55,816 nucleotides of DNA from a virus (taxonomy: Duplodnaviria > Caudoviricetes): IMG/VR virus record IMGVR_UViG_3300048849_000180, positions 1 to 55,816 of that record; one strand, given 5' to 3'. The stretch's first letter is position 1. The number at the start of each line of letters is the position of its first letter. Positions 2,818 to 23,389 of this stretch are shown here, piece after piece. Under the pieces are notes generated by a model. The model saw only the letters and a program-made list of their open reading frames with translations, was not told where the DNA came from and searched no databases. Made by a program: the position numbers and the translations under genes.

Positions 2818-3156
2818 CTATTTCTCTTTTACAATGCTTTTTGCTTTCTGCCCCACAGTCGTTCGAATGGTGCTATCCAGTTCTTTTTTATCTTGTGCTT
2901 GTTGCAGTATGATTCCATTTTTTATCAGCAAGGCAGTTGTTAGAGCGTCTTTGTCGGCACGCGATTGCGTGAGCTCCTTGCGCAGCTCAGCCTTTTCCGC
3001 TTCACAGTTTTTATTCACCTGGTCGGTACTTGTGCCAAACCGGTAAACGAAGAACCACATAAGCGACAAAGCGACCATGAGCATGTAGGTTACGGGAGCC
3101 TTGACAATCTGGCTGAACGTTATTTTATTGAGTTGGTCTTGTACTTCTTCAGGCAT
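2818..3156 (-). CDS. Putative holin / lysis membrane protein
   Basis: Single TM plus coiled coil; its ATG overlaps the endolysin stop. Confidence 0.55.
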   Translation of the reverse strand: MPEEVQDQLNKITFSQIVKAPVTYMLMVALSLMWFFVYRFGTSTDQVNKNCEAEKAELRKELTQSRADKDALTTALLIKNGIILQQAQDKKELDSTIRTTVGQKAKSIVKEK

Positions 3157-8200: not shown

Positions 8201-8804
8201 CAATCTGTCCTCGACTTACTTTGTATAAGCCTCGCCCACGGCCGCATTCAAACTTAAGTCCGGTAAATCGCCCGGCCATAGCGGTTAAATTTATTGTTTT
8301 TCCGACCAGCCAGAACTCAAGCTTAAACGCTTCAGCAATTTTGATCAAGGCTCCTTTACACGAGTAACCTTTCCCGGATTCGAAGAAGTCCATAGCGACC
8401 TCATCTGCGTCGTCAACTTCACCGATGGTCCAGCCTGGATCAATGCTGTTCATGCAGTCAATCAATATCTGCAAGTACATTCTTGGTGTTCCAAAATAAG
8501 AGAACTCAAGTGACCCCAGGTGCATGTACGGCATATCCAGTAGATTGTAGATATAGCCTTCGAATGTTATATTATAGGTTAGGTCTGCGCTACTCTCCTT
8601 ATCAACTGGCGGCAGCGGCCTATTTATCGTAAAGCGCTCACCTCTGAATTCGATATAATCCCCTTCGTTAATGTCAAGGGCGGCATCACTGATGAAACTG
8701 CAGGTTATAATATGCTCCCCCATCACCGCCTGTGAGAAAACGGTATTCTCATCAATAGGCAGTAAAAGGTGTGCAGCTCCGTTTCTATATAATTGAATGT
8801 TCAT
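5235..8804 (-). CDS. Tail tip / host-specificity (Tal/central fibre-like) protein
   Basis: 1189 aa; baseplate-hub-like N-terminus, GxY...YxxGD modules, G-X-X collagen-like stretches, internal repeats. Confidence 0.85.
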   Translation of the reverse strand: MNIQLYRNGAAHLLLPIDENTVFSQAVMGEHIITCSFISDAALDINEGDYIEFRGERFTINRPLPPVDKESSADLTYNITFEGYIYNLLDMPYMHLGSLEFSYFGTPRMYLQILIDCMNSIDPGWTIGEVDDADEVAMDFFESGKGYSCKGALIKIAEAFKLEFWLVGKTINLTAMAGRFTGLKFECGRGRGLYKVSRGQIDDVDYFNRLYIQGSDKNIPYGYRNGAKRLQIDVPYLELPLTGGSKRRAKSVVIDDIFPKRVGTITSVGDDWLSITDDSINFDINGKRIEGVKATVEILSGENGGQSFEIGGYNSSTKTITLLPIVEADGYVRPNNTFSINPGDKYFLAGIDMPQTYVETAEADLKERGSEILNDVKRKTPPYSVEVDPKYMRDNGIRVNAGDRVIMQDEDLEIDANIRVSSVKLPLVNPDKITFVLSDVIPLSITEKVIVEIDKAKQDVITIDKNRLKSARENWKATEELATLLDALRAEMLLIMVDGGAYTTDIVAKTTKDTFSTSAGTVYHEQFTEHDGIWNVPAYQTSLANNQAYYVYIKARKADFGGQIVLSASKIGPNSDPDVYYIPFGIISSIIEGTRIFSSTKGYTAIVGDNIRTGRIVSNDGYNYFDLTTNSFNLGTAANGLDYNVTKPNTLTLRGALFQSGSGVVAPVPVYRGPYNATATYYKGDSVTYNGTTFLYVNDQPAAGQTPADNEFWDITSAAGTPGSPGTPGTPGAAGNYTEFRFAKNTSSTTAPTLTNTATAPTGWTTTQPTLATGEFMWVTSVTKVGATGALVGTWSVPARMNGTNGTNGTGSAGAAGNYMEFRFQKNGSTTAAPSLVNTDTAPTGWTIAQPTLAAAEYLWMTSAMKNGTTNALIGTWSTPVRVNGLPGTPGRDGTNGTNGTNGGPGPSLTYTGVYSSTKTYQGNANLVQAVYYNGNYYFTRSDAGSFSNILPTNTTKWNAAGAQFDSIATGLLLAQLAYIDNLGVRYLSTNTPGNKRVVIDGDQNNLRLYSASDLILAELDDDSAVRVTPADINNGVTLRETTAGLGMTNGAGDKSTMSAFGFYTTGTLTIGAGNNPLIIDQNGIRGANTNAGTIAAKTVTAPYSLQSDDNTLVFTSGSAGYTFVLPTTDIPNGREVTVRGSGYYPTVNASGTNYQLGQAIISGLPLIGLTFIFIGTRWYTKASLVGAV
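6150..6612 (-). repeat. Two tandem ~75 aa repeats in the tail protein
   Basis: GAAGNYxEFRFxKN...TAPTGWT..QPTLA..E..W.TS..K.G.T.AL.GTWS.P.R.NG occurs twice; bounds approximate. Confidence 0.8.
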
Positions 8805-8824
8805 ATTGCTTTTTTTGAAACGGT

Positions 8825-11317
8825 TTATAAATGGTGAACTCCAAATTCACCCCAGCGAGAAAACTTGTCATCGTAACCCCTGAATTTGAACCCACATTTG
8901 GTTGAAGTCATAAATGCTGAATCCGTGACCGTTGTCACGATCACCCCGTTGATGTATAGTGTAATCTGATCGCCATTGGAAATGACCTTGATCACATCAC
9001 CGATTTTAGGTACAATAGTGGATGCGTAAATTGTTATATCGTTGCTTTGAAAACGCTTCACTATTTGCCAAATATTCGATGTGTTGGTCGCTTGGATCGC
9101 GATGTAATTGTTTGCATCTACGTACCGGAATACGAGCAACGTTGTTCTGCTTCCCGGACTTACCATAGTATGTAATTGCGCTTTTACGGTTCTGTTCACG
9201 AAGGGATAATCTACCAACGCAAAGTTGTACACGTTATTCGAGTTCTGAGGGGAACCCAAACCATCATCATTCACGCTTATAACGTTGGCGCTGGTACCTA
9301 CCTTTTGCCATACAAGTGGTACCAGACCACCGGTCAATGTTCCGGTGATATCCGGGCCCTGATCAGTTACCATAAAGTCCTGGTACACGTCAAAGGTTAG
9401 TTCTTCACGGTCAGGAGCTTCAAGGATCCGCTGAAACGCCTTTTTTGGTTGACCATAGTAATCATGAGGTGCCGGGAATTCTTTGATCTGGTTGGTTGGT
9501 GCATCTGGAGCATTCTTACCTTGATTCTCCAAATAATATTTATCGTAAACGGTCCAGAAAACAACCCCACCACGCTGGGCAAGCGGAACTGCATTCTCGT
9601 AAGCCAGGAAAATATTATAGTAAGTGGTCGCCAGCTTTTCAGCTAGGGCTTCGGTGTATGGCTGTGGTGAAGAAGATCCGGAAGTAAGCGTAAGAACATC
9701 AAGCTCCGTGTACATCACCTTTAGGCCTCGACTGGACCAGTACCGCAGGCGTTTTTTCAAAACATCAATATCTATATTGACATTGGTGTGCATTTGAAAA
9801 CCCATGCCATCAACCATAATCTGCTTGCCACTGGTACTCATAATATTTTTAGCCTTTAAGCCATCAATCAGAGCTTTGTAAGCATCAGATTGTTTTTCGT
9901 TACTGGTTTCTTGATTATAGTCGTTAACATAAAGATCAATGTCAGGGTCAGCATTTCGCGCGATTGTAAAGCATAATTCAAAAAGTTCAGCTACATCGAA
10001 ATTATCATACCACATACCGCGCTTAAGAGTACCACCGCGAGATGGGTCACCCTCGCCTTGACCGTCGTAAATCCATTCATTTGTGACGTTCATTGATCGA
10101 ACAATACCCGGAAAGTTTGTTTTAAAGTGACTTAATACAGATGGTATGGTATCATTCAAAAACCCAGTCAAAATAGCTTTTCTGTTAGCTGCTGGTGCGG
10201 CAGCAACCTTTGTGACCAACCAAGATGGGCCGTCAGCAAGCCAAAGTGCGTGGGCCCAATGAGCTTTTAACCCCTTTGATTTGCAATAATTCAGAATCGC
10301 GTCCGCTTCTGTCCAATTCCAAGTTGTCTCTGAAGGTCGCAAGTGGCTCACATTCGTTCCGTTTTCGCAAGTGATCAATCTTGAAAGATCAATGATAGCT
10401 TGATAGGCGGCATTATTTTTTTTATCCAAGTCATAGGCGTACCCGATATCGTATGTAAATGACCCGAACGTGGAGTTGAGGGCATCCATAACCCATTGCC
10501 TGTTCCGGATGTAGACCTTCAACTGTTCCCCGGTTCCAAGGTCAGGCAGGTAAAACTTACCATCCCGGTACTCAGGAAATACGTCTGGCAACCTGTCAAG
10601 CTTATTCTTGTATGCTTCAGTAAAATTGTTGTCGGTCGTTCCGGATCCAGTACCTCCCCCAGTTCCACCGCCGGTGTTTACGCCACTGGTAAGCAGATCA
10701 TTTATTTTACCGTAAAGAAGATCTAGCGACTGTTCTACTGTTCCTGAATTCCTGATCGCCTTAATGCTCATCGGCACACCGTTGTTCGGTGAACTTAGGT
10801 TGACGTATTGAACGCCAGCCGGAACGGTCACCTTCTCGTTGTAGATATTTATGGGTCCCGATAAGTTGGTCTGGTGAGCCTGGTTGTATCGCTCAACACT
10901 CATCATGTTACCAGCCGGGTAGCTATTGATTAAGGTAGAAACAAAGCTTCCGTAGGAATTGGACGAATATCCTACAAGACCGGTTCCTACAATTGGAGGC
11001 GAAGTATTAAAGTCAGCAGTTGTAAAGCTCACGATAAGCTGCTCCCCCGGTTCCACTTTTAAGAACCCACTGTATTTGTCAACGTTACTGGCAGCAAAGG
11101 CACCCGTATAAACACTCACCTTTCCCGCAAGCGGGTTTGTAACAAGTTCAACTTCGATAGGTTGATCAGTTCCTCCGGATCCGTCTGGTATAGCTAAATC
11201 TCCAACTTCCAGATACTGGAATGCCTTGGTGACCGGGTTCACGATCAAAAGTCTATCTGTCGTCTGTACGTCGGTTCTTCGCTGTAGGTCGGTGGTTATA
11301 TTCTTTGTTCCAGCCAT
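8825..11317 (-). CDS. Putative virion-associated GH10 glycoside hydrolase (receptor-binding/depolymerase candidate)
   Basis: TCEN, KAHWAHALW, MNVTNEW, LYVNDYN, DGMGFQMH, MYTELDV, GVVFW; C-terminal beta-sandwich; lies between the Dit-like and Tal-like genes. Confidence 0.85.
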   Translation of the reverse strand: MAGTKNITTDLQRRTDVQTTDRLLIVNPVTKAFQYLEVGDLAIPDGSGGTDQPIEVELVTNPLAGKVSVYTGAFAASNVDKYSGFLKVEPGEQLIVSFTTADFNTSPPIVGTGLVGYSSNSYGSFVSTLINSYPAGNMMSVERYNQAHQTNLSGPINIYNEKVTVPAGVQYVNLSSPNNGVPMSIKAIRNSGTVEQSLDLLYGKINDLLTSGVNTGGGTGGGTGSGTTDNNFTEAYKNKLDRLPDVFPEYRDGKFYLPDLGTGEQLKVYIRNRQWVMDALNSTFGSFTYDIGYAYDLDKKNNAAYQAIIDLSRLITCENGTNVSHLRPSETTWNWTEADAILNYCKSKGLKAHWAHALWLADGPSWLVTKVAAAPAANRKAILTGFLNDTIPSVLSHFKTNFPGIVRSMNVTNEWIYDGQGEGDPSRGGTLKRGMWYDNFDVAELFELCFTIARNADPDIDLYVNDYNQETSNEKQSDAYKALIDGLKAKNIMSTSGKQIMVDGMGFQMHTNVNIDIDVLKKRLRYWSSRGLKVMYTELDVLTLTSGSSSPQPYTEALAEKLATTYYNIFLAYENAVPLAQRGGVVFWTVYDKYYLENQGKNAPDAPTNQIKEFPAPHDYYGQPKKAFQRILEAPDREELTFDVYQDFMVTDQGPDITGTLTGGLVPLVWQKVGTSANVISVNDDGLGSPQNSNNVYNFALVDYPFVNRTVKAQLHTMVSPGSRTTLLVFRYVDANNYIAIQATNTSNIWQIVKRFQSNDITIYASTIVPKIGDVIKVISNGDQITLYINGVIVTTVTDSAFMTSTKCGFKFRGYDDKFSRWGEFGVHHL

Positions 11318-11319
11318 CG

Positions 11320-12234
11320 TTAGTTAAATTTTAATAGTTCAGCAATCGGCACCCCGTTGCCATCGATTAATGTATTTCCTGAATTGTCGGTTAAGACATT
11401 CCAGGTATTCAGCGTGCGGATCTCGGTTAACTTCAAGTCTATTGCGCATACATATCGGGTCCCCTGCTTGTATAGCTTTGAAACTTTAAATCCGTCTTTC
11501 GCAAAGAATTCGCGCTCTACGCCATTGTAAATGAGTGTTCTTGAATTTGGCAAAGCAAGTAAAGCGGCCAGCGATCTAACCGAGGAGTTAAAAGCGGCGT
11601 AGGTGGTAAATGAACCCGCCAGGTTGAGGTTGAAAGTCCTCATGCCGCTCTTTGTTACTTTGCTGCCTTCAAAACCGTATGCCGTGACGTTGGCTTTTTT
11701 AGCCGCCGGCCTATTATATTGCCCTTCCGTTGATCTGATGACAAAGCCCATTTTTTTTAGGCTTATTCCGTCGATCGATGGGGTGACTGTGTCCGTGGTG
11801 AATGCTGCGCCTGTTAGATTTACAACCGGCTCTCGCATGACCAGTGTACCCTTGCAGTATCCGGAACCTAAGTATTTGATCTGAATCTCGTTATTGACTA
11901 ATACCTGATAGGTTCCGTACAAATCCGAGCTAAAAGGAACTGGACCAGTAAAAGCATCAATGTCGTCGTATAATGCGAAGCATTTACTTTGCGCTGTTTC
12001 CCGGTTAGTTGCCTTTACCAGAAACATGAAGGTAAGGTCGCGCCCTCCAAAGAATATTTCGTCAGCCCGCAAGTATGGTTCAATTCCTTTTTCATCAGGC
12101 CACTCGTAGTGAGTGTCTCCAATCCGAGAAGGCATATCCCATGCTCCGCTAAAAGCCAGGTTACTTGACGGAGACTTAGCCGGTAGTATGGAGTATGTCG
12201 ATACGTTCTACCCGTTTAAGTAGTAGTTGTTCAT
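11320..12234 (-). pseudogene. Distal tail (Dit-like) protein with an in-frame TAG at codon 9
   Basis: ATG at 12234 overlaps the TMP stop (ATGA) and reads MNNYYLNG*NVSTYSILPAKSPSSNLAFSGAWDMPSR, in frame with ORF 11320..12135; TAG at 12208-12210. Confidence 0.72.
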
Positions 12235-15200
12235 CGGCTGCCTGTTAATGATGCACTGCTTTGTGCCTGTGGTAATGGTTTGGTGTTGGTGATGATCTTT
12301 TCCAGATTGGCATTGGACGCCTTTAATTCAGCGACCGTATTGAATGTGTGCTGTTCAATCATTTCAAGGCTGTGGATCCCTATGGTCGCAATCTTTAGGT
12401 GATCAAGCGCGGTAAGGCTGATTTGCTTGGTGATATCATATTGAGCCCGGAACAGTCCTGTGAGCTCGGATGCCTGGTCTTGGGTGATCTTGTTTGCAAT
12501 CTCGGCTTGTATGCCCCCTTTTTCCGACTGGCTTGCCGAAGAACCTCCTGTGATCTTGTCCAGGTCTGCCAGCTTATCAAGTCCATTTTGGATAGCTGCG
12601 TTATACGCATCCCTTAGAACTTCAACATCATCATCCGTCAGTCCGTTAGAATCCCCGGATAAGCTCGCAAACCTCTTGTAGAAGTCAGAAATGGCGGCGT
12701 TCAGGTAATTGTCACGGAACAGGCTTAGGAACGAATCCTGCATCATGCCTTTGAAGTCATCAGCAAAATCTGAGGCGAAGCGCTTACCGTTTTTAAACCC
12801 GGAGATTATTGCGTCAGTGATGCTCGCGGCAGTTGTGCCGGTTACTCTTTGATCAATTTCATCAAAGGCGTCTTGCGCGCTTTGTCCGATGTCATCCATT
12901 TCGGATTTTATCTTTTGAAGTTCCTCAAACCAAGCTTTAGTAGAATCTGTTAACTTGTTTTCGTTATATAACTTTTCAAGTGATTTAAAGTCCGATCCCG
13001 CAACACCCGCAAGATCCTGTACGACCCTGCTCTTTTTACCAAAACCCAGAAAGCCCCCGTACTCCTCTGTGTGCTCACCGGTGATCTGTTGGCCTGTTGA
13101 TTTGATCATAGCTAACAGCCTGTCATAGTCTTGTTGCGCCTGGCTTTCTTGAGTGTTTAAGATTGCTTGTCTATTTCTTAACTCCGAAAGCGATAAATCA
13201 CCTATGCTCTTCAGTGTACGTTCACGTTCTCTTAGCAACTGGTTATAGGCAAGCTCGCCCTTGACCATGTTGTCCTGATATGCTTGAAGTTCGGCGGCTG
13301 CTTGTCTGGCACTCTCCTTTGCAGCCTTGAAGAAAGAAGTAATGCCTTTTACAACATTAACAACCGCACCGATAGCCTTACCTGCCGGTCCTGCAACTGA
13401 TAGTCCAGCCGTAAGAGTTCCAAGCAACCCGCCTCCGGCTTCAGCCTTTGTCTCTTTATAACTTTTCAAAGCGTCCATGGTATCGGCAACACCCTGCTTC
13501 ACATCTGCCGCTGCAGAAACCATGTCACCAAGAATATTAAGCACGTTCGTCAACCCAGAGGATAATCCATTAGACGACGATGCGAGATCTTTGAATATCT
13601 GAGCGAAACCGCGCAGTTGGCTTGGAATAGCATCGTTTAATGACGCCTTCGCATTGTTGATTGCTTTTATTACCAGGTCATACGCTTTTCGGGTGAGCAA
13701 GCCTGCCGCCAAGTCTGCATTCGCTTTCTGCTTTGCCTTTTGGATGTATTCAGTAATGGCATCAGTTGACATTCGTGTAAATCCATCGAATAGCTTTTTG
13801 TATCCTGCTATCTGCTGAATGGTGTTTTGATCAAAGCGCTCTAACTCTTCCTTCCCATTAGCGATGGCCTGTTCTGCCTGCAGGTTGTACCCTTTCGCAC
13901 GAAGGTCTGCGGCATCCTTGATCGCCTTCTCAATGATCAGATTGCGTGATTGCTCAAATGTTTGCGTATCGACCAATAACTTTTGAAACTGAAGTCTTTG
14001 ATTCTTGTCTTCTTCAACTTTAATCGGTGCCGCTACTTCATTCTTTTTAGTCGATAGGAGATCGGTTTTACCCTTTCGGCTTTCAATGTCTTTAGAGATA
14101 TAATCGGCAAACGACTTGTAGTCTAGAATTTCATTCTTGTACATCTCATCAGCGAGCTTTTCGCCCAAGTCTATCTTAGCCTGCTCGTACTCTTCATAAA
14201 GCTTTTTCTTTCTATCAAGCTCGTCTTTGTACCCGTTTTTGCCGTTGATGATGGCATCTACCCCGGCCACACCCAGTTCAATGTTTCGAGCAGACTCCAC
14301 CGGCGTCTTGCTCATCTGGTCTGACGCATTCAGTTTTGCGTTCAGCTTGTCTATGGCTGCGATTCTGTCATCGTACTTTTTATTTATGGCGGCGATCTGC
14401 TGCGCTTCATCATCCAGACCGCTTGCCCGGGCACCAGCGAGATCCTGGCTGATCTCACGCTCCAGGTCTTTACGCTTTTCAAGCAGGACGTTGTACTTTT
14501 TGGCGGCGGCTGCTTCTTTTGCAAGCTGTTCAGCTGTTTTCTGTGCTTGAAGTTCTTTGGCCTTTTGTTCCTCTGCAGCGGCTTTGGCAGCTTTCTGGGC
14601 ATCGACAAGCTTTTGAACTTCTGGATTAGATGATAGAATCTTGCTTTGGGCACTTTTAAGATCAGACACCTTGGTTTGAGCAAGTCTAGAATCGAACGTG
14701 TTGCTTATTTCGGAAATAGCACCCGATAGATTACCTTTTGCAATCTCCTTCATGGCTTTGAAAAAACCAGAAAAGCTGATTGCTAAGCGATCAAACGTTG
14801 TTATGGCTTCGATCCCTTTCTCATTGATTTTATCAATTTGATCTTGTAGGCCTTTATAGTCCGCGAACTCCTGTTCAGCTTCAGTAGCCTTGCGAACTGA
14901 CTCCTTGTATTGGTTAATTGCAGTAGCGCCTTTGCCAGCTGCAATTTCTTCTTGTGAATAGTGATCGAGCGCACCTTTAGTGGTTAACAGCAGCTCGTCA
15001 TACGCCTGTTTTTGCTCTCTTTTCGAGGTATTATGGTCTTTGATGGTCTTGATCAGACCGTCAATCTTTTCTGTTTCGTTCTCAACAGCCCGGGCACCTT
15101 TGTTCTTCGCTTCAGTAAGTGATTCTTCAGCAATCTCGGCAGCGTTCTGGTACTGGATGAGTGAATAGCCAACAGCAACCAGGCCCGCTAAGACAGCAGT

Positions 15201-17966: not shown

Positions 17967-18385
17967 GTGTTCAGTCGCTGTTTAAAATTCTTGATTGCCG
18001 CTTTTAATTGTTTTTCAGCAATCTTAGAACTGCCGGTTAATACGTCTTTTCCCCTACTCTCAACAGCCGCCGCGTATTGCATACCAGCAACGACGATCAG
18101 CACATAACCCTGCAAGTGCCCCTGGATCAACTCGTCTATGTAATCTTTACTGTCAGCAGGTATCTGTCCTGGCGATTTCTTCACACCGTTCTTGGTTACC
18201 ACATAGCAGATTGAAGATCTTAGGTTACCGGTCTGGTCCTTGTATGTGCCGTTTGCCCGTGCGTTCGCTACGAATGTTTCACCGATGAAAATTAACCGGC
18301 TGATGATCGCGTCCTCAAACCTTTTGGCCTTCACCATGAAAGCTTTGTTGATATCGGACTCGGTGAACTTCGACCTGATACTCAT
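17963..18385 (-). CDS. HK97 gp10-like tail completion protein
   Basis: DQTGNLRSSI and YAAAVE motifs. Confidence 0.8.
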   Translation of the reverse strand: MSIRSKFTESDINKAFMVKAKRFEDAIISRLIFIGETFVANARANGTYKDQTGNLRSSICYVVTKNGVKKSPGQIPADSKDYIDELIQGHLQGYVLIVVAGMQYAAAVESRGKDVLTGSSKIAEKQLKAAIKNFKQRLNT

Positions 18386-18858
18386 ATCAAATTTTCGGCT
18401 CTAAATGGATGATACACTTTTTCTGCTTTTAACCTTGCGTTTATAGCTTCTTGAAGATCATTGAAACGGCCTATACGCATAGACTTGTAATTCAAGGTTA
18501 TGTATGCCGACCATTTGTTCCTTGATTTTTCAAAGCTAACCCCTTTTATTCCCGTTTTACTGTCCCTGTGAGCACGTATGTTTTGGCAGTTTTGCGCATT
18601 TGTAACGACTCTCAAGTTGCACTTTTGATTATTCAATCCATTCCTATCCTTATGATCAATAACCATTTTAGTGCTGAGTTTCATAATCTCTCTATGCATC
18701 TGAATTGAAGTTTTCTTACCATCACTAAGTTTTACATTTCTGGCCGCGTAATAGGTATTTTTGTCTTTCCTAGCGAACCAAGAAAATTGATTAAGATATT
18801 CAAAGTCATCATCATCAACTGTTGTAACCTGTCCTAATGTTAATTTGATTGTTCTCAT
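18382..18858 (-). CDS. HNH-AP2 homing endonuclease
   Basis: MHREIM, IDHKDRNGLNNQKCNLR, then AP2 domain GIKGVSF...KWSAYI...IGRF; likely start MRTIKL at 18858. Confidence 0.88.
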   Translation of the reverse strand: MRTIKLTLGQVTTVDDDDFEYLNQFSWFARKDKNTYYAARNVKLSDGKKTSIQMHREIMKLSTKMVIDHKDRNGLNNQKCNLRVVTNAQNCQNIRAHRDSKTGIKGVSFEKSRNKWSAYITLNYKSMRIGRFNDLQEAINARLKAEKVYHPFRAENLI

Positions 18859-18869
18859 AGATGTATAAA

Positions 18870-19199
18870 TTAAACCCATGCTCTGGTATTCATTGTACCT
18901 TCAAAGAACCGTTTAACCGTTCCGGATGCGATTAATGCTTCATTGTGATAACCTTCAATTTCTACACCTTCCGGTATATCAGAGTTTCCAAGTGGCATGT
19001 AAACGATCCAGCCGTAATCAAGCTTTAATCCGTCATTGCTTGGAATTTGCTCTCCGGATCCGTTAACCTCAAATCTGCACTTAATCTCGACGTTCGTAGT
19101 TGCACCGGGTACGATTACCGTATCGCCGTTCTCGTCAATTTCTTCCGAACCACCGGTAACGATGTCAAACTTTAGGATATGTGGGTATTGGATCACCAT
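18870..19199 (-). CDS. Head closure / neck protein
   Basis: Synteny, 109 aa. Confidence 0.6.
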   Translation of the reverse strand: MVIQYPHILKFDIVTGGSEEIDENGDTVIVPGATTNVEIKCRFEVNGSGEQIPSNDGLKLDYGWIVYMPLGNSDIPEGVEIEGYHNEALIASGTVKRFFEGTMNTRAWV

Positions 19200-21984: not shown

Positions 21985-22359
21985 ATGGGACTAAAAGCCG
22001 ACTTCTCTTCATTTATAGCATTACAAAACAGAATTCAAGAAACAAAATCTAAAATTGATAGCTGGGAAAAGAGGGATATCGATGTTCGTGGTAAGGATAT
22101 ATCAATCGACGATGCAGAACATGTGTTGGATGCTAAGGCTATGATTAGCAAGGAAGAAAATGAACTTAAAAATTTAGAGCAGAAACTTGATAAGCTTAAA
22201 AAAGCAGTAACAACCAGTCTGTTAATTTTACGAGCCAATAGCGTTCAGATTTCATTGGACCATTTGGGTAATTTTAAGGTAAACGTGGACCACATAGAAA
22301 GTACTGATGAAGATGGTGATCCATTTACTGAACCCGAGTTAACATATACTAAATGCTAA
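21985..22359 (+). CDS. Hypothetical coiled-coil protein (moron in the head module)
   Basis: AT-rich 124 aa ORF opposite to the head genes. Confidence 0.65.
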   Translation: MGLKADFSSFIALQNRIQETKSKIDSWEKRDIDVRGKDISIDDAEHVLDAKAMISKEENELKNLEQKLDKLKKAVTTSLLILRANSVQISLDHLGNFKVNVDHIESTDEDGDPFTEPELTYTKC

Positions 22360-23389
22360 CTTTATTATCAGTTACCCAGTCCGGCTTCCGTTTCCAATTG
22401 TCCATAGATCCTTTTTTATCCTCGACATACTTCTCAAACTGATCAGGCAGCGCTTTTACTTCGCCCTGGAAACTGTACTTACCAGCAGTTCCTTTTAAAA
22501 TAGCCTCTTCGTATTTGTCATAATCTTCTGGACTTGCAAGTTTCGGAGTACAGTTACACATGCACTGGACATGCCAGGCCCGCCAAACGAACGTCTTCGG
22601 GTACGTTCCGGTTAGTGAATCGCAAATATCAAATCGCGGGTGATTGTTGGATAGATTCACGTTGTAGCCCAAAATGAAAGGAAGAGTTTGGTATCGAACC
22701 ATGTCCGCCTGCCTGTAGGTATCATTGATCGTATGCCTGGTCAGGCGCATCGCGTTCCGGTAGCTGGATCGGTATACACCGCGTCCGGGCTTGTATGCCT
22801 TTGCGGCTTTGGATAGCTGCAGTCTTCCTTTCGCATCTTTAACGCGGCGAAAGAGCTTGTGGGGATTCTGCAAGTATTTCATGTGATCCCGGGCCATTTC
22901 TGCAGCAGATTTACCCTCACTTAAGCCAGCAAACAAGTTTTGCTCGATTTCAGAGCGAAACTGGTCGGTATACCTCCATACTCTATCAGAAAGTTTCATA
23001 CCTCCACTTGACCGATTTAGAAAAGACTCAAGCGCTTCCTCATGCGGGTCATAGATCATCTTGTTTACGGCATCCGAGATCTTCTTTTTTGCGTAGGAGG
23101 TATTAATAATCTCGGCATTCTTTTCGGTGGATAGCTCCCATTCACCCTTTACCCCATTGATGAGCGTCACGTTAACCTGTTCGCGAAAGTCAACAAGTAC
23201 CTTATCGATCTCTTTGCTTAGCTCTGGGTAATCGGATAACCTGAAGGTTTCCCGTTTAAGCTTTGCTTGAGCTGCCGCCTTGTAGATTTTCCCTACTGCA
23301 ATTTCATACTGTGCCTTAACCTTCTTTTGAAGCCTTTGAATGTTGGCCTGGTGCCGGGCTTCGTACCGTTTGTTTATCGAATCTGCCAT
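22349..23389 (-). CDS. Minor head / head morphogenesis protein (Mu gpF / SPP1 gp7-like)
   Basis: LSDRVW, ICDSLTG...WHVQCMC; follows the portal gene. Confidence 0.82.
   Translation of the reverse strand: MADSINKRYEARHQANIQRLQKKVKAQYEIAVGKIYKAAAQAKLKRETFRLSDYPELSKEIDKVLVDFREQVNVTLINGVKGEWELSTEKNAEIINTSYAKKKISDAVNKMIYDPHEEALESFLNRSSGGMKLSDRVWRYTDQFRSEIEQNLFAGLSEGKSAAEMARDHMKYLQNPHKLFRRVKDAKGRLQLSKAAKAYKPGRGVYRSSYRNAMRLTRHTINDTYRQADMVRYQTLPFILGYNVNLSNNHPRFDICDSLTGTYPKTFVWRAWHVQCMCNCTPKLASPEDYDKYEEAILKGTAGKYSFQGEVKALPDQFEKYVEDKKGSMDNWKRKPDWVTDNKVSI

Follow-up and report, generated by a model that had tools for sequence, protein, structure and literature searches.

Why does a provirus encode a complete glycoside hydrolase of family 10 (GH10) between two structural genes of its tail? 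This question is raised by P0001, an 830-residue protein encoded in a 55,816-nucleotide stretch of DNA from IMG/VR record IMGVR_UViG_3300048849_000180 (the whole stretch is referred to as the window), where its gene lies between the genes for a Dit-like and a Tal-like tail protein. Herein, we propose that P0001 is a tail-tip accessory protein of a temperate siphovirus of a Sphingobacteriaceae-like host, and that it does the work of a tailspike depolymerase with a GH10 TIM barrel in place of the beta-helix; we assign this reading a probability of roughly 0.6. The domain identities of P0001, its intact catalytic residues, a syntenic slot with swapped payloads and the presence of paired GH10 genes were all observed in the present study, and a virion-attached glycanase acting on a host surface polymer appears to be the best reading of them.

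The GH10 domain and its catalytic residues

First, the open reading frame (ORF) between the Dit-like and Tal-like genes is real, and the complete GH10 barrel and C-terminal beta-sandwich described in an earlier sequence-only reading of the window were recovered. The gene lies on the minus strand, which that reading had not mentioned; the plus-strand reading of 8825-11317 is riddled with stops. The guanine-cytosine content of the gene (0.43-0.46) is the same as that of the rest of the tail module, and its motifs and context establish it as a GH10 gene beyond chance. From the N-terminus, P0001 consists of an anchor, a beta domain, a Gly-rich linker, the GH10 barrel and a ConA-like domain. The match to PF00331 (E value 2.3e-43, 149 bits against a cut-off of 22.1) covers profile positions 11-310 of 311 and agrees with a scan at the DNA level. 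A phmmer search with P0001 returned 134 distinct PDB sequences at E <= 0.01, the best 60 of which are all GH10-type xylanases or glycanases, headed by 4w8l (E 4.9e-23). In the AlphaFold2 model, with a mean predicted local distance difference test score (pLDDT) of 75.4, most 10-residue blocks of the barrel (about 280-640) exceed 85, and the Foldseek search of this model against the PDB matched GH10 xylanases (E 4e-22, template modelling (TM) score on the target 0.85-0.88, 20-25% identity). PHROGs contains no family for P0001, for the second GH10 protein P0004 or for the Dit-like protein, and the sole label among the cluster members is an automatic 'GH35 family endo-1,4-beta-xylanase'.

Second, the catalytic residues are intact. 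The NE sequence, which we take to be the acid/base motif of GH10, and the TELD-type sequence, presumably the nucleophile motif, occur in P0001 as VTNE and YTELD, as had been pointed out before, and align with wdvvNE and qvTELD of 4w8l and 3w24. Both glutamates, E414 and E538, are invariant in 23/23 aligned relatives with identities down to 22%, together with E318, N413, Q508, H510 and W588. Because the catalytic residues are invariant across these relatives, P0001 is very probably active. The pair E318-N319 is also kept, but the Lys of the ENxxK signature is replaced by Asn, and thus the canonical GH10 signature is absent. This Lys is replaced in 13 of the 23 relatives, namely those nearest to P0001, and retained in the other 10 and in P0004; a His is found about five residues past the lost Lys in 10 of the 13. 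In GH10 enzymes the ENxxK Lys contacts glycone sugars, and the lost Lys and gained His hint at an altered glycone subsite or specificity in the P0001 clade. In other words, the loss concerns substrate specificity and not membership of the GH10 family.

Third, the C-terminal domain resembles modules of phage tail proteins and of carbohydrate-active enzymes. This domain, residues 641-830, is all-beta, with pLDDT of about 75-96 in most blocks, and matched Atlas models of the DUF1080/PF06439/3-keto-disaccharide-hydrolase ConA-like type at TM 0.77-0.82. PF06439-type ConA-like modules resembling it accompany GH43 enzymes and pectate lyases, and its BFVD matches are the ConA-like/LamG ends of phage minor tail proteins; in the model it is a probable carbohydrate-binding module. 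Upstream of the barrel, residues 51-205 are for the most part strands (pLDDT 50-80), and the Gly-rich linker holds GGGTGGGTGSG at residues 216-226. An Atlas search with residues 1-235 gave weak leads (feature scores 0.82-0.84, TM 0.40-0.47), the N-terminal parts of phage SGNH, deacetylase and phosphoesterase proteins, which were not used as evidence. The anchor, the first 45 residues or so, has pLDDT below 50 as a monomer.

The slot between Dit and Tal

The genes for the tape measure protein (TMP), the Dit-like protein, P0001 and the Tal-like protein follow one another in this order, all on the minus strand; the ATG of P0001 comes immediately after the Dit-like stop, and the Tal-like start lies 20 nt past the P0001 stop. 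Relatives were gathered via TerL and via the Dit family (46 viral loci), and the gene after Dit is Tal-like in 21 loci and another gene in 25. The slot proteins scanned against Pfam numbered 24, comprising 19 from the 25 non-Tal loci together with those of the window, locus L028 and genomes G001, G002 and G003. A GH10 payload was found in 2/24 (the window and its orthologue in L028, 42% identical), a Beta_helix or Pect-lyase_RHGA_epim domain above cut-off in 5/24, and an esterase family above cut-off (SASA, alpha/beta-hydrolase) in 2/24; the remaining 15/24 had no match or sub-threshold matches only. This survey fits the general statement, made in the sequence-only reading, that phage depolymerases are mostly beta-helix proteins. 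In G001, the closest relative (TerL 94%), the slot is occupied by a 798-residue pectate-lyase-like protein that resembles P0001 in residues 3-84 alone (35%), and in G003 by a SASA acetylesterase protein.

Moreover, the first 40 or so residues of P0001 recur in 5/46 proteins encoded downstream of Dit (192-825 residues) with other payloads; in a small database, these BLASTP matches reach 35-53% identity over 34-83 residues, with E values from 2e-8 to 3e-3. The order in a second provirus (L028/G453) is TMP, 304-residue Dit, 821-residue GH10 protein, Tal, small GH10 and endolysin, and its slot protein is the full-length orthologue of P0001 noted above. The GH10 cassette (about residues 40-830) was also observed in metagenomic proteins behind other N-termini of the tail-fibre type, such as Mtd_N in P0007 and a beta-helix in P0008; P0007-P0011 align with P0001 from residues 17-51 to the end, with differing N-termini. 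By comparison of these loci, the slot between Dit and Tal is variable and payload-swapping. Since a conserved short N-terminus is combined with an exchangeable carbohydrate-active body, a build typical of receptor enzymes attached to virions, P0001 can be read as such an enzyme. The sequence-only reading had proposed a virion-borne enzyme cutting a host beta-glycan or environmental xylan, and this proposal holds in part, insofar as the comparison points to a tail-tip slot with swappable payloads. In another class of slot proteins, most of them of the beta-helix or pectate-lyase-like kind, it is a different N-terminus that is conserved (L037-L039, L043, L045, L047, L056, L057); their genes begin about 200 nt past the Dit stop, a gap wide enough for a small unannotated ORF, perhaps encoding an adaptor.

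The Dit family offers an indirect hint on how such proteins might be attached. The segments that had been proposed to dock on each other are present as written, with ITTDL at residues 7-11 and TDRLLI at 20-25 of P0001, and LTDNSGNTLIDGNG at residues 248-261 of the 271-residue Dit-like protein (P0005). The latter lies in a C-terminal Dit extension, the region homologous to P0005 225-271. In the 22 loci with this extension the next gene is non-Tal in 22/22, and in the 24 loci where it was undetected Tal comes next in 21/24. These counts fit a role of the extension as a platform for side proteins; many of the loci are near-duplicates, and the signal is confounded by relatedness. The extension is common to phages whose slot proteins have different N-termini. 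Complex prediction with the Dit-like protein (alignment A3) and P0001 1-100 scored 0.00 in both runs with an uncertain partner fold, and speaks neither for nor against binding.

The record is a 55.8-kb siphovirus-type provirus with a CheckV completeness of 95%. An integrase is encoded at 1-1203, lysis, tail, head and packaging genes extend on the minus strand to about 26.4 kb, and replication and recombination genes lie beyond. TerL relatives were found in prophages of Pedobacter antarcticus (83%), P. metabolipauper (78%), Desertivirga (67%), Mucilaginibacter (65%) and Chitinophaga (60%); the host is therefore most likely a member of the Sphingobacteriaceae. The single public DNA run containing the stretch is labelled soil metagenome and is possibly the source sample, and no RNA sequencing run containing it is listed. 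A contig of that run is identical to the window over 8800-12300 and is not independent of it.

Proteins of this type appear to be rare. Against 50,697 GenBank phage records, tblastn matched P0001 to 3 and P0004 to 6 uncultured faecal 'Bacteriophage sp.' contigs at 22-27% identity, and neither protein to a cultured phage; the tail region itself had no Megablast match among GenBank phages. A word-index search with P0001 returned one close homologue, and an exhaustive search 22 proteins at E <= 1e-30. When the word-index search was run with residues 1-100 by themselves, nothing but the query came back; a segment this short is unable to attain significance in a collection of 5.8 billion sequences. 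No locus was found in viral or genome contigs when P0001 was the one query protein, and the family alignment A1 as query yielded two viral loci.

The coordinates of the features are collected in Table 1. The Tal-like match to Prophage_tail is below its cut-off; the orthologues in G002 and G003 (31-32% identity) reach 42.9 and 38.5 bits. P0005 itself has no Pfam match, and PF05709 (Sipho_tail) is matched by 13 of 37 Dit-like homologues, with a best E of 4.9e-8. The Dit-like model has a pLDDT of 89.5, and Foldseek weakly matched it to the Dit of SPP1, to TP901-1 and to other baseplate hubs (E 3e-3 to 2e-2); a Dit-family profile run against PDB sequences gave one weak irrelevant match. Two further genes of the head region were noted. 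An HNH endonuclease gene (18382-18879, minus strand; PHROG 99, E 2.9e-38) lies inside the head-tail connector block. A minor head/head morphogenesis protein (22349-23389, minus strand) also matches PHROG 16625, which bears the label Bxa ADP-ribosyl transferase, at E 7.8e-67 over residues 194-343, and the shared part may be the head-protein domain alone.

Table 1. Positions of P0001, its domains and catalytic codons, and neighbouring genes in the window
Feature	Position	Strand	Basis or remark
P0001, tail-slot protein, 830 aa	8825..11317	-	ATG-start ORF, Pfam GH10, AlphaFold2 model
N-terminal anchor, about 45 residues, conserved, contains ITTDL..TDRLLIVNPVTKAFQY	11183..11317	-	BLASTP, slot-protein N-termini
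Beta-rich domain, residues 51-205, without recognised family	10703..11167	-	travels with GH10 cassette; model
Helix and Gly-rich linker, residues 206-235	10613..10702	-	sequence; pLDDT <50
GH10 (beta/alpha)8 catalytic domain, residues 289-633	9419..10453	-	Pfam PF00331, PDB sequences, Foldseek
E414 codon, predicted acid/base Glu, VTNE (411-414)	10076..10078	-	aligned with NE of 4w8l, 3w24
E538 codon, predicted nucleophile Glu, YTELD (536-540)	9704..9706	-	aligned with TELD of 4w8l, 3w24
ConA-like/DUF1080-like beta-sandwich, residues 641-830	8828..9397	-	model, Atlas, BFVD
Tape measure protein, 1331 aa	12231..16226	-	Pfam TMP_3 E 2.3e-24; PHROG 9959 E 1.6e-161
Dit-like gene (P0005)	11320..12234	-	ATG at 12234-12232 overlapping TMP stop as ATGA; PF05709 in homologues
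Tal-like tail-tip protein, 1189 aa	5235..8804	-	Prophage_tail 28.7 bits (cut-off 31.3, so below); PHROG matches
P0004, second GH10 gene, 426 aa	3932..5212	-	Pfam GH10 E 5.5e-55; between Tal-like gene and endolysin
GH19-like endolysin, 189 aa	3156..3725	-	Glyco_hydro_19 E 5.6e-8; PHROG 181 endolysin E 2.1e-29

Paired GH10 genes, proposed mechanism and alternatives

The window contains a second GH10 gene, which the sequence-only reading had missed. In its product, P0004, a short helix at the N-terminus is followed by some 90 residues of proline-rich linker and then by a canonical GH10 domain. Orthologues with 60-62% identity were found in G001, L028 and L029, and a similar 440-residue gene in G409. 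GH10 was detected in 4/48 related virus records, with exactly two matches in each, as in the window. One member of each pair is structural: in the window and G453 it occupies the slot, and in G001, G410 and G409 it is fused to the C-terminus of the Tal-like protein. The other is a small gene of 405-453 residues. The small genes are orthologous (61-85% identity) and the structural GH10s are 21-23% identical across types, the two Tal-fused ones that were compared having 23%; the Tal-like protein of the window is 55% identical over 628 residues to that of G001, which carries GH10 at its C-terminus. Between GH10 classes identity does not exceed 28%, apart from the 33-36% between the slot type and a 727-residue type of G387. 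The comparison thus suggests that in one subclade the structural GH10 was replaced or re-acquired at two positions and the small GH10 kept, and this exchange of one and retention of the other suggests in turn that both act on the same target. The Tal-like proteins with a C-terminal GH10 are encoded in L011 (9724-13491), L029 (5283-9035) and L081 (G409), and that of G001 has SEVA in place of the TELD-type nucleophile motif, with the Glu kept and the Asp lost.

The lysis region adjoining P0004 varies among the relatives. The endolysin is GH19-like in the window, a PF11860 muramidase in G001 (L011, 14975-15622) and a GH108 plus PG_binding_3 protein in L028 (17283-17915) and L029. The lysis cassette ends with two genes (2022-2816 and 2818-3156, minus strand) for proteins of 264 and 112 residues, neither of which has a Pfam or PHROG family. 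The smaller one has one hydrophobic helix; the larger starts with a transmembrane helix, continues with a coiled-coil-like region and closes with a beta-rich part whose last residues are RF. The 264-residue protein is kept in G001 (66%), G002 (42%) and G387 (41%), and the two proteins may have a holin- or spanin-like function in a lysis system of Bacteroidota.

We infer virion attachment, a host-surface substrate and a division of labour between the two GH10 proteins. The first 45 or so residues of P0001 would attach to the baseplate beside Dit and Tal, and the beta-rich domain and flexible Gly-rich linker, both of which are present, would hold the catalytic unit out. The ConA-like domain would bind a surface glycan. 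The GH10 domain would then hydrolyse a beta-linked backbone, probably 1,4-linked and of the xylose or glucose type, by retaining double displacement, with E414 as acid/base and E538 as nucleophile. Such cutting would clear a path through capsule or exopolysaccharide (EPS) to the outer membrane. The target of P0004 is most likely the same polymer, cut from the side of the producer cell either at release or on the lysogen surface.

In a more specific form of this proposal, which we advance tentatively, as a doubtful extension, the phages would follow a two-enzyme strategy like that of influenza virus, directed at a single glycan of a Sphingobacteriaceae-like host, namely a not yet described xylan-like capsule or EPS that GH10 can cleave. 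A virion-anchored GH10, in the slot or fused to Tal, would drill in at entry, and a small GH10 tethered by its long proline-rich linker would destroy the same receptor polymer on the producer or lysogen, thereby freeing progeny and excluding superinfection. That every structural GH10 comes with a small one suggests this division of labour between entry and exit. A hydrophobic N-terminus ending in Cys, lipoprotein-like by eye, is present in two of the five small GH10s (G001 and L029/G410) and absent from the other three.

Several points weigh against P0001 as a virion-attached enzyme acting on a host polymer. First, the pLDDT is below 50 across the N-terminal 83 residues of the AlphaFold2 model. 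Second, in one scan 9/10 slot proteins had no recognisable enzyme family, the ten including those with the N-terminal motif of P0001, and the slot may thus not be a general holder of enzymes. Third, the GH10-bearing records are closely related, and the pairing is partly inherited and does not represent five independent events. Fourth, the sole strong match in 401 Sphingobacteriaceae genomes is the 727-residue protein of G387, with GH10, two ConA-like domains and no anchor, encoded directly upstream of a phage lysozyme and a homologue of the 264-residue lysis-cassette protein of the window; judging from its sequence, it indicates that GH10 plus ConA-like units also exist as soluble proteins. 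Fifth, a GH10 enzyme is as a rule a monomer that hydrolyses plant xylan, ordinary GH10 genes are numerous in the host family, the substrate may be nutritional or environmental, and a literature search on Pedobacter exopolysaccharide did not find a xylan-like surface polymer of Pedobacter or relatives. Finally, the Dit-like gene contains a premature TAG, and the prophage may make no tails.

The G387 locus (L027, G387:C13, 9726-15486) has the order HTH protein, two small ORFs, 727-residue GH10, phage lysozyme, 151-residue ORF and 265-residue protein. It adjoins capsule genes (Wzi, ManC-like, UDP-glucose dehydrogenase), and on the side inspected the nearest 20 kb are free of tail genes.

The substrate is the point on which the first alternative differs from our proposal. 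P0001 might be a virion-borne matrix clearer that cuts environmental or surface-held plant xylan and not a polymer made by the host, which we consider unlikely. P0001 is a bona fide GH10 protein closest to endo-1,4-beta-xylanases, P0004 keeps the canonical ENxMK motif and is 36-38% identical to the ordinary GH10 genes (about 360 residues) of Sphingobacteriaceae genomes, several of which occur per genome, and the soil label of the run points in the same direction. However, the slot is swapped to pectate-lyase-like or acetylesterase proteins in close relatives (TerL 78-94%), a pattern expected of serotype-specific receptor enzymes rather than of an enzyme suited to a habitat, and the altered glycone subsite suggested by the lost Lys and gained His of the P0001 clade also argues against plant xylan.

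The nonsense codon, another feature absent from the sequence-only reading, underlies a further alternative, namely that P0001 is an intact relic in a prophage rendered defective, and is either idle or released only at lysis. An in-frame TAG at 12208-12210 is codon 9 of the Dit-like gene, where the homologues P0158 and P0160 have Lys, and a second assembly, from the probable source run, has the identical base at a depth of 112. The cassette of GH10, lysozyme and 265-residue genes persisting in G387 with no tail genes nearby is in line with such a relic. Nevertheless, the other structural ORFs inspected are open, the CheckV estimate of 95% argues for a nearly complete provirus, and a restart at Met36 (longest open ORF 11320-12135) would give a 271-residue protein, confidently folded in the model, compared with about 300-308 residues in homologues. 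This copy of the prophage may thus be defective unless translation restarts at Met36. A relic is rather improbable; it would concern the present copy and not the evolved function, and is compatible with P0001 having evolved as a tail-borne enzyme. A code change in which TAG is read as sense was considered for the Dit stop and dropped, the other ORFs being open under table 11.

Less probable still is an auxiliary metabolic or lysogenic-conversion role, in which extra xylanases feed the lysogen and the tail position is incidental. A viral GH10 'xylanase' is listed among auxiliary carbohydrate-active enzymes of soil viromes in Table 1 of one study (PMC6460857), and the lipoprotein-like start of two of the five small GH10s resembles Bacteroidota surface xylanases. 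Against this role, P0001 lacks a signal peptide, its N-terminus recurs in other tail-slot proteins, its gene is tightly packed between Dit and Tal, and GH10 is fused to the Tal-like C-terminus in three relatives. Least probable is a binding-only receptor-binding protein with the barrel as a lectin-like module without turnover. In its favour, enzyme-derived phage receptor-binding proteins are known and the ENxxK Lys is replaced in P0001 and its nearest relatives; against it, the catalytic and -1 subsite residues are invariant in 23 relatives, which argues for purifying selection on catalysis.

Comparison with known systems

If P0001 is a tail enzyme, it is an example of one based on GH10 and not on a beta-helix, and it widens the folds to look for in depolymerase prediction; a published selection scheme demands a beta-helix (PMC13385381). 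It would also imply a surface polymer cleavable by GH10 on some Pedobacter-like soil bacteria. The proposal bears on the question, posed in a preprint (10.1101/2024.12.20.629349), of whether the glycoside hydrolases encoded by viral contigs from soil represent auxiliary metabolic genes (AMGs) or serve core functions in infection and lysis; 'GH10' does not occur as a whole word in the part of that preprint available. Both GH10 genes of the window sit in tail and lysis modules. Were the two-enzyme strategy true, many of the genes that soil viromes list as 'viral xylanase AMGs' would serve infection and not carbon cycling.

Xylanases are listed in reviews among predicted phage hydrolase depolymerases, one of them predicted in Caulobacter phage Cr30 (PMC5380687, PMC13385381), and the auxiliary enzyme cited above comes from a mangrove soil virome. 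In these sources, such depolymerases and AMGs are annotations without tail context, unlike P0001 with its slot, anchor and paired GH10. Literature searches, whose scope left out supplementary files that might list viral GH10 genes, did not find a characterised GH10 tail enzyme, and two apparent mentions of GH10 were actually GH101 or GH108. Among phage proteins in BFVD, GH5 TIM barrels of the same clan GH-A were matched, including those of uncultured Caudovirales and Pseudomonas phage POR1, so that barrels of this clan have precedents among phage proteins; they belong to another family, and they matched less well than the ConA-like domain did (E 5e-8 to 2e-7).

P0001 has the fold, the Pfam family and the NE, TELD, QxH and EN motifs in common with GH10 xylanases such as 4w8l, 3w24, 2dep and 1us2. 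Unlike them, it is only 20-25% identical, has lost the ENxxK Lys and is embedded in an 830-residue tail protein with a putative anchor. With the tailspike depolymerases it has in common the position in the tail module beside Dit and Tal, the combination of a short conserved N-terminal module with a swappable carbohydrate-active payload, and relatives in which that slot is filled by a payload of the classic beta-helix or pectate-lyase-like type. Its catalytic unit differs from theirs in being a GH10 barrel plus a ConA-like module instead of a trimeric right-handed beta-helix; P0001 would thus act as tailspike depolymerases do but stands outside their beta-helix fold class. Tail-borne depolymerases as such are known; what appears to be new, judging from these comparisons, is that a probable enzyme of this kind is built on GH10 and accompanied by a second GH10 protein.

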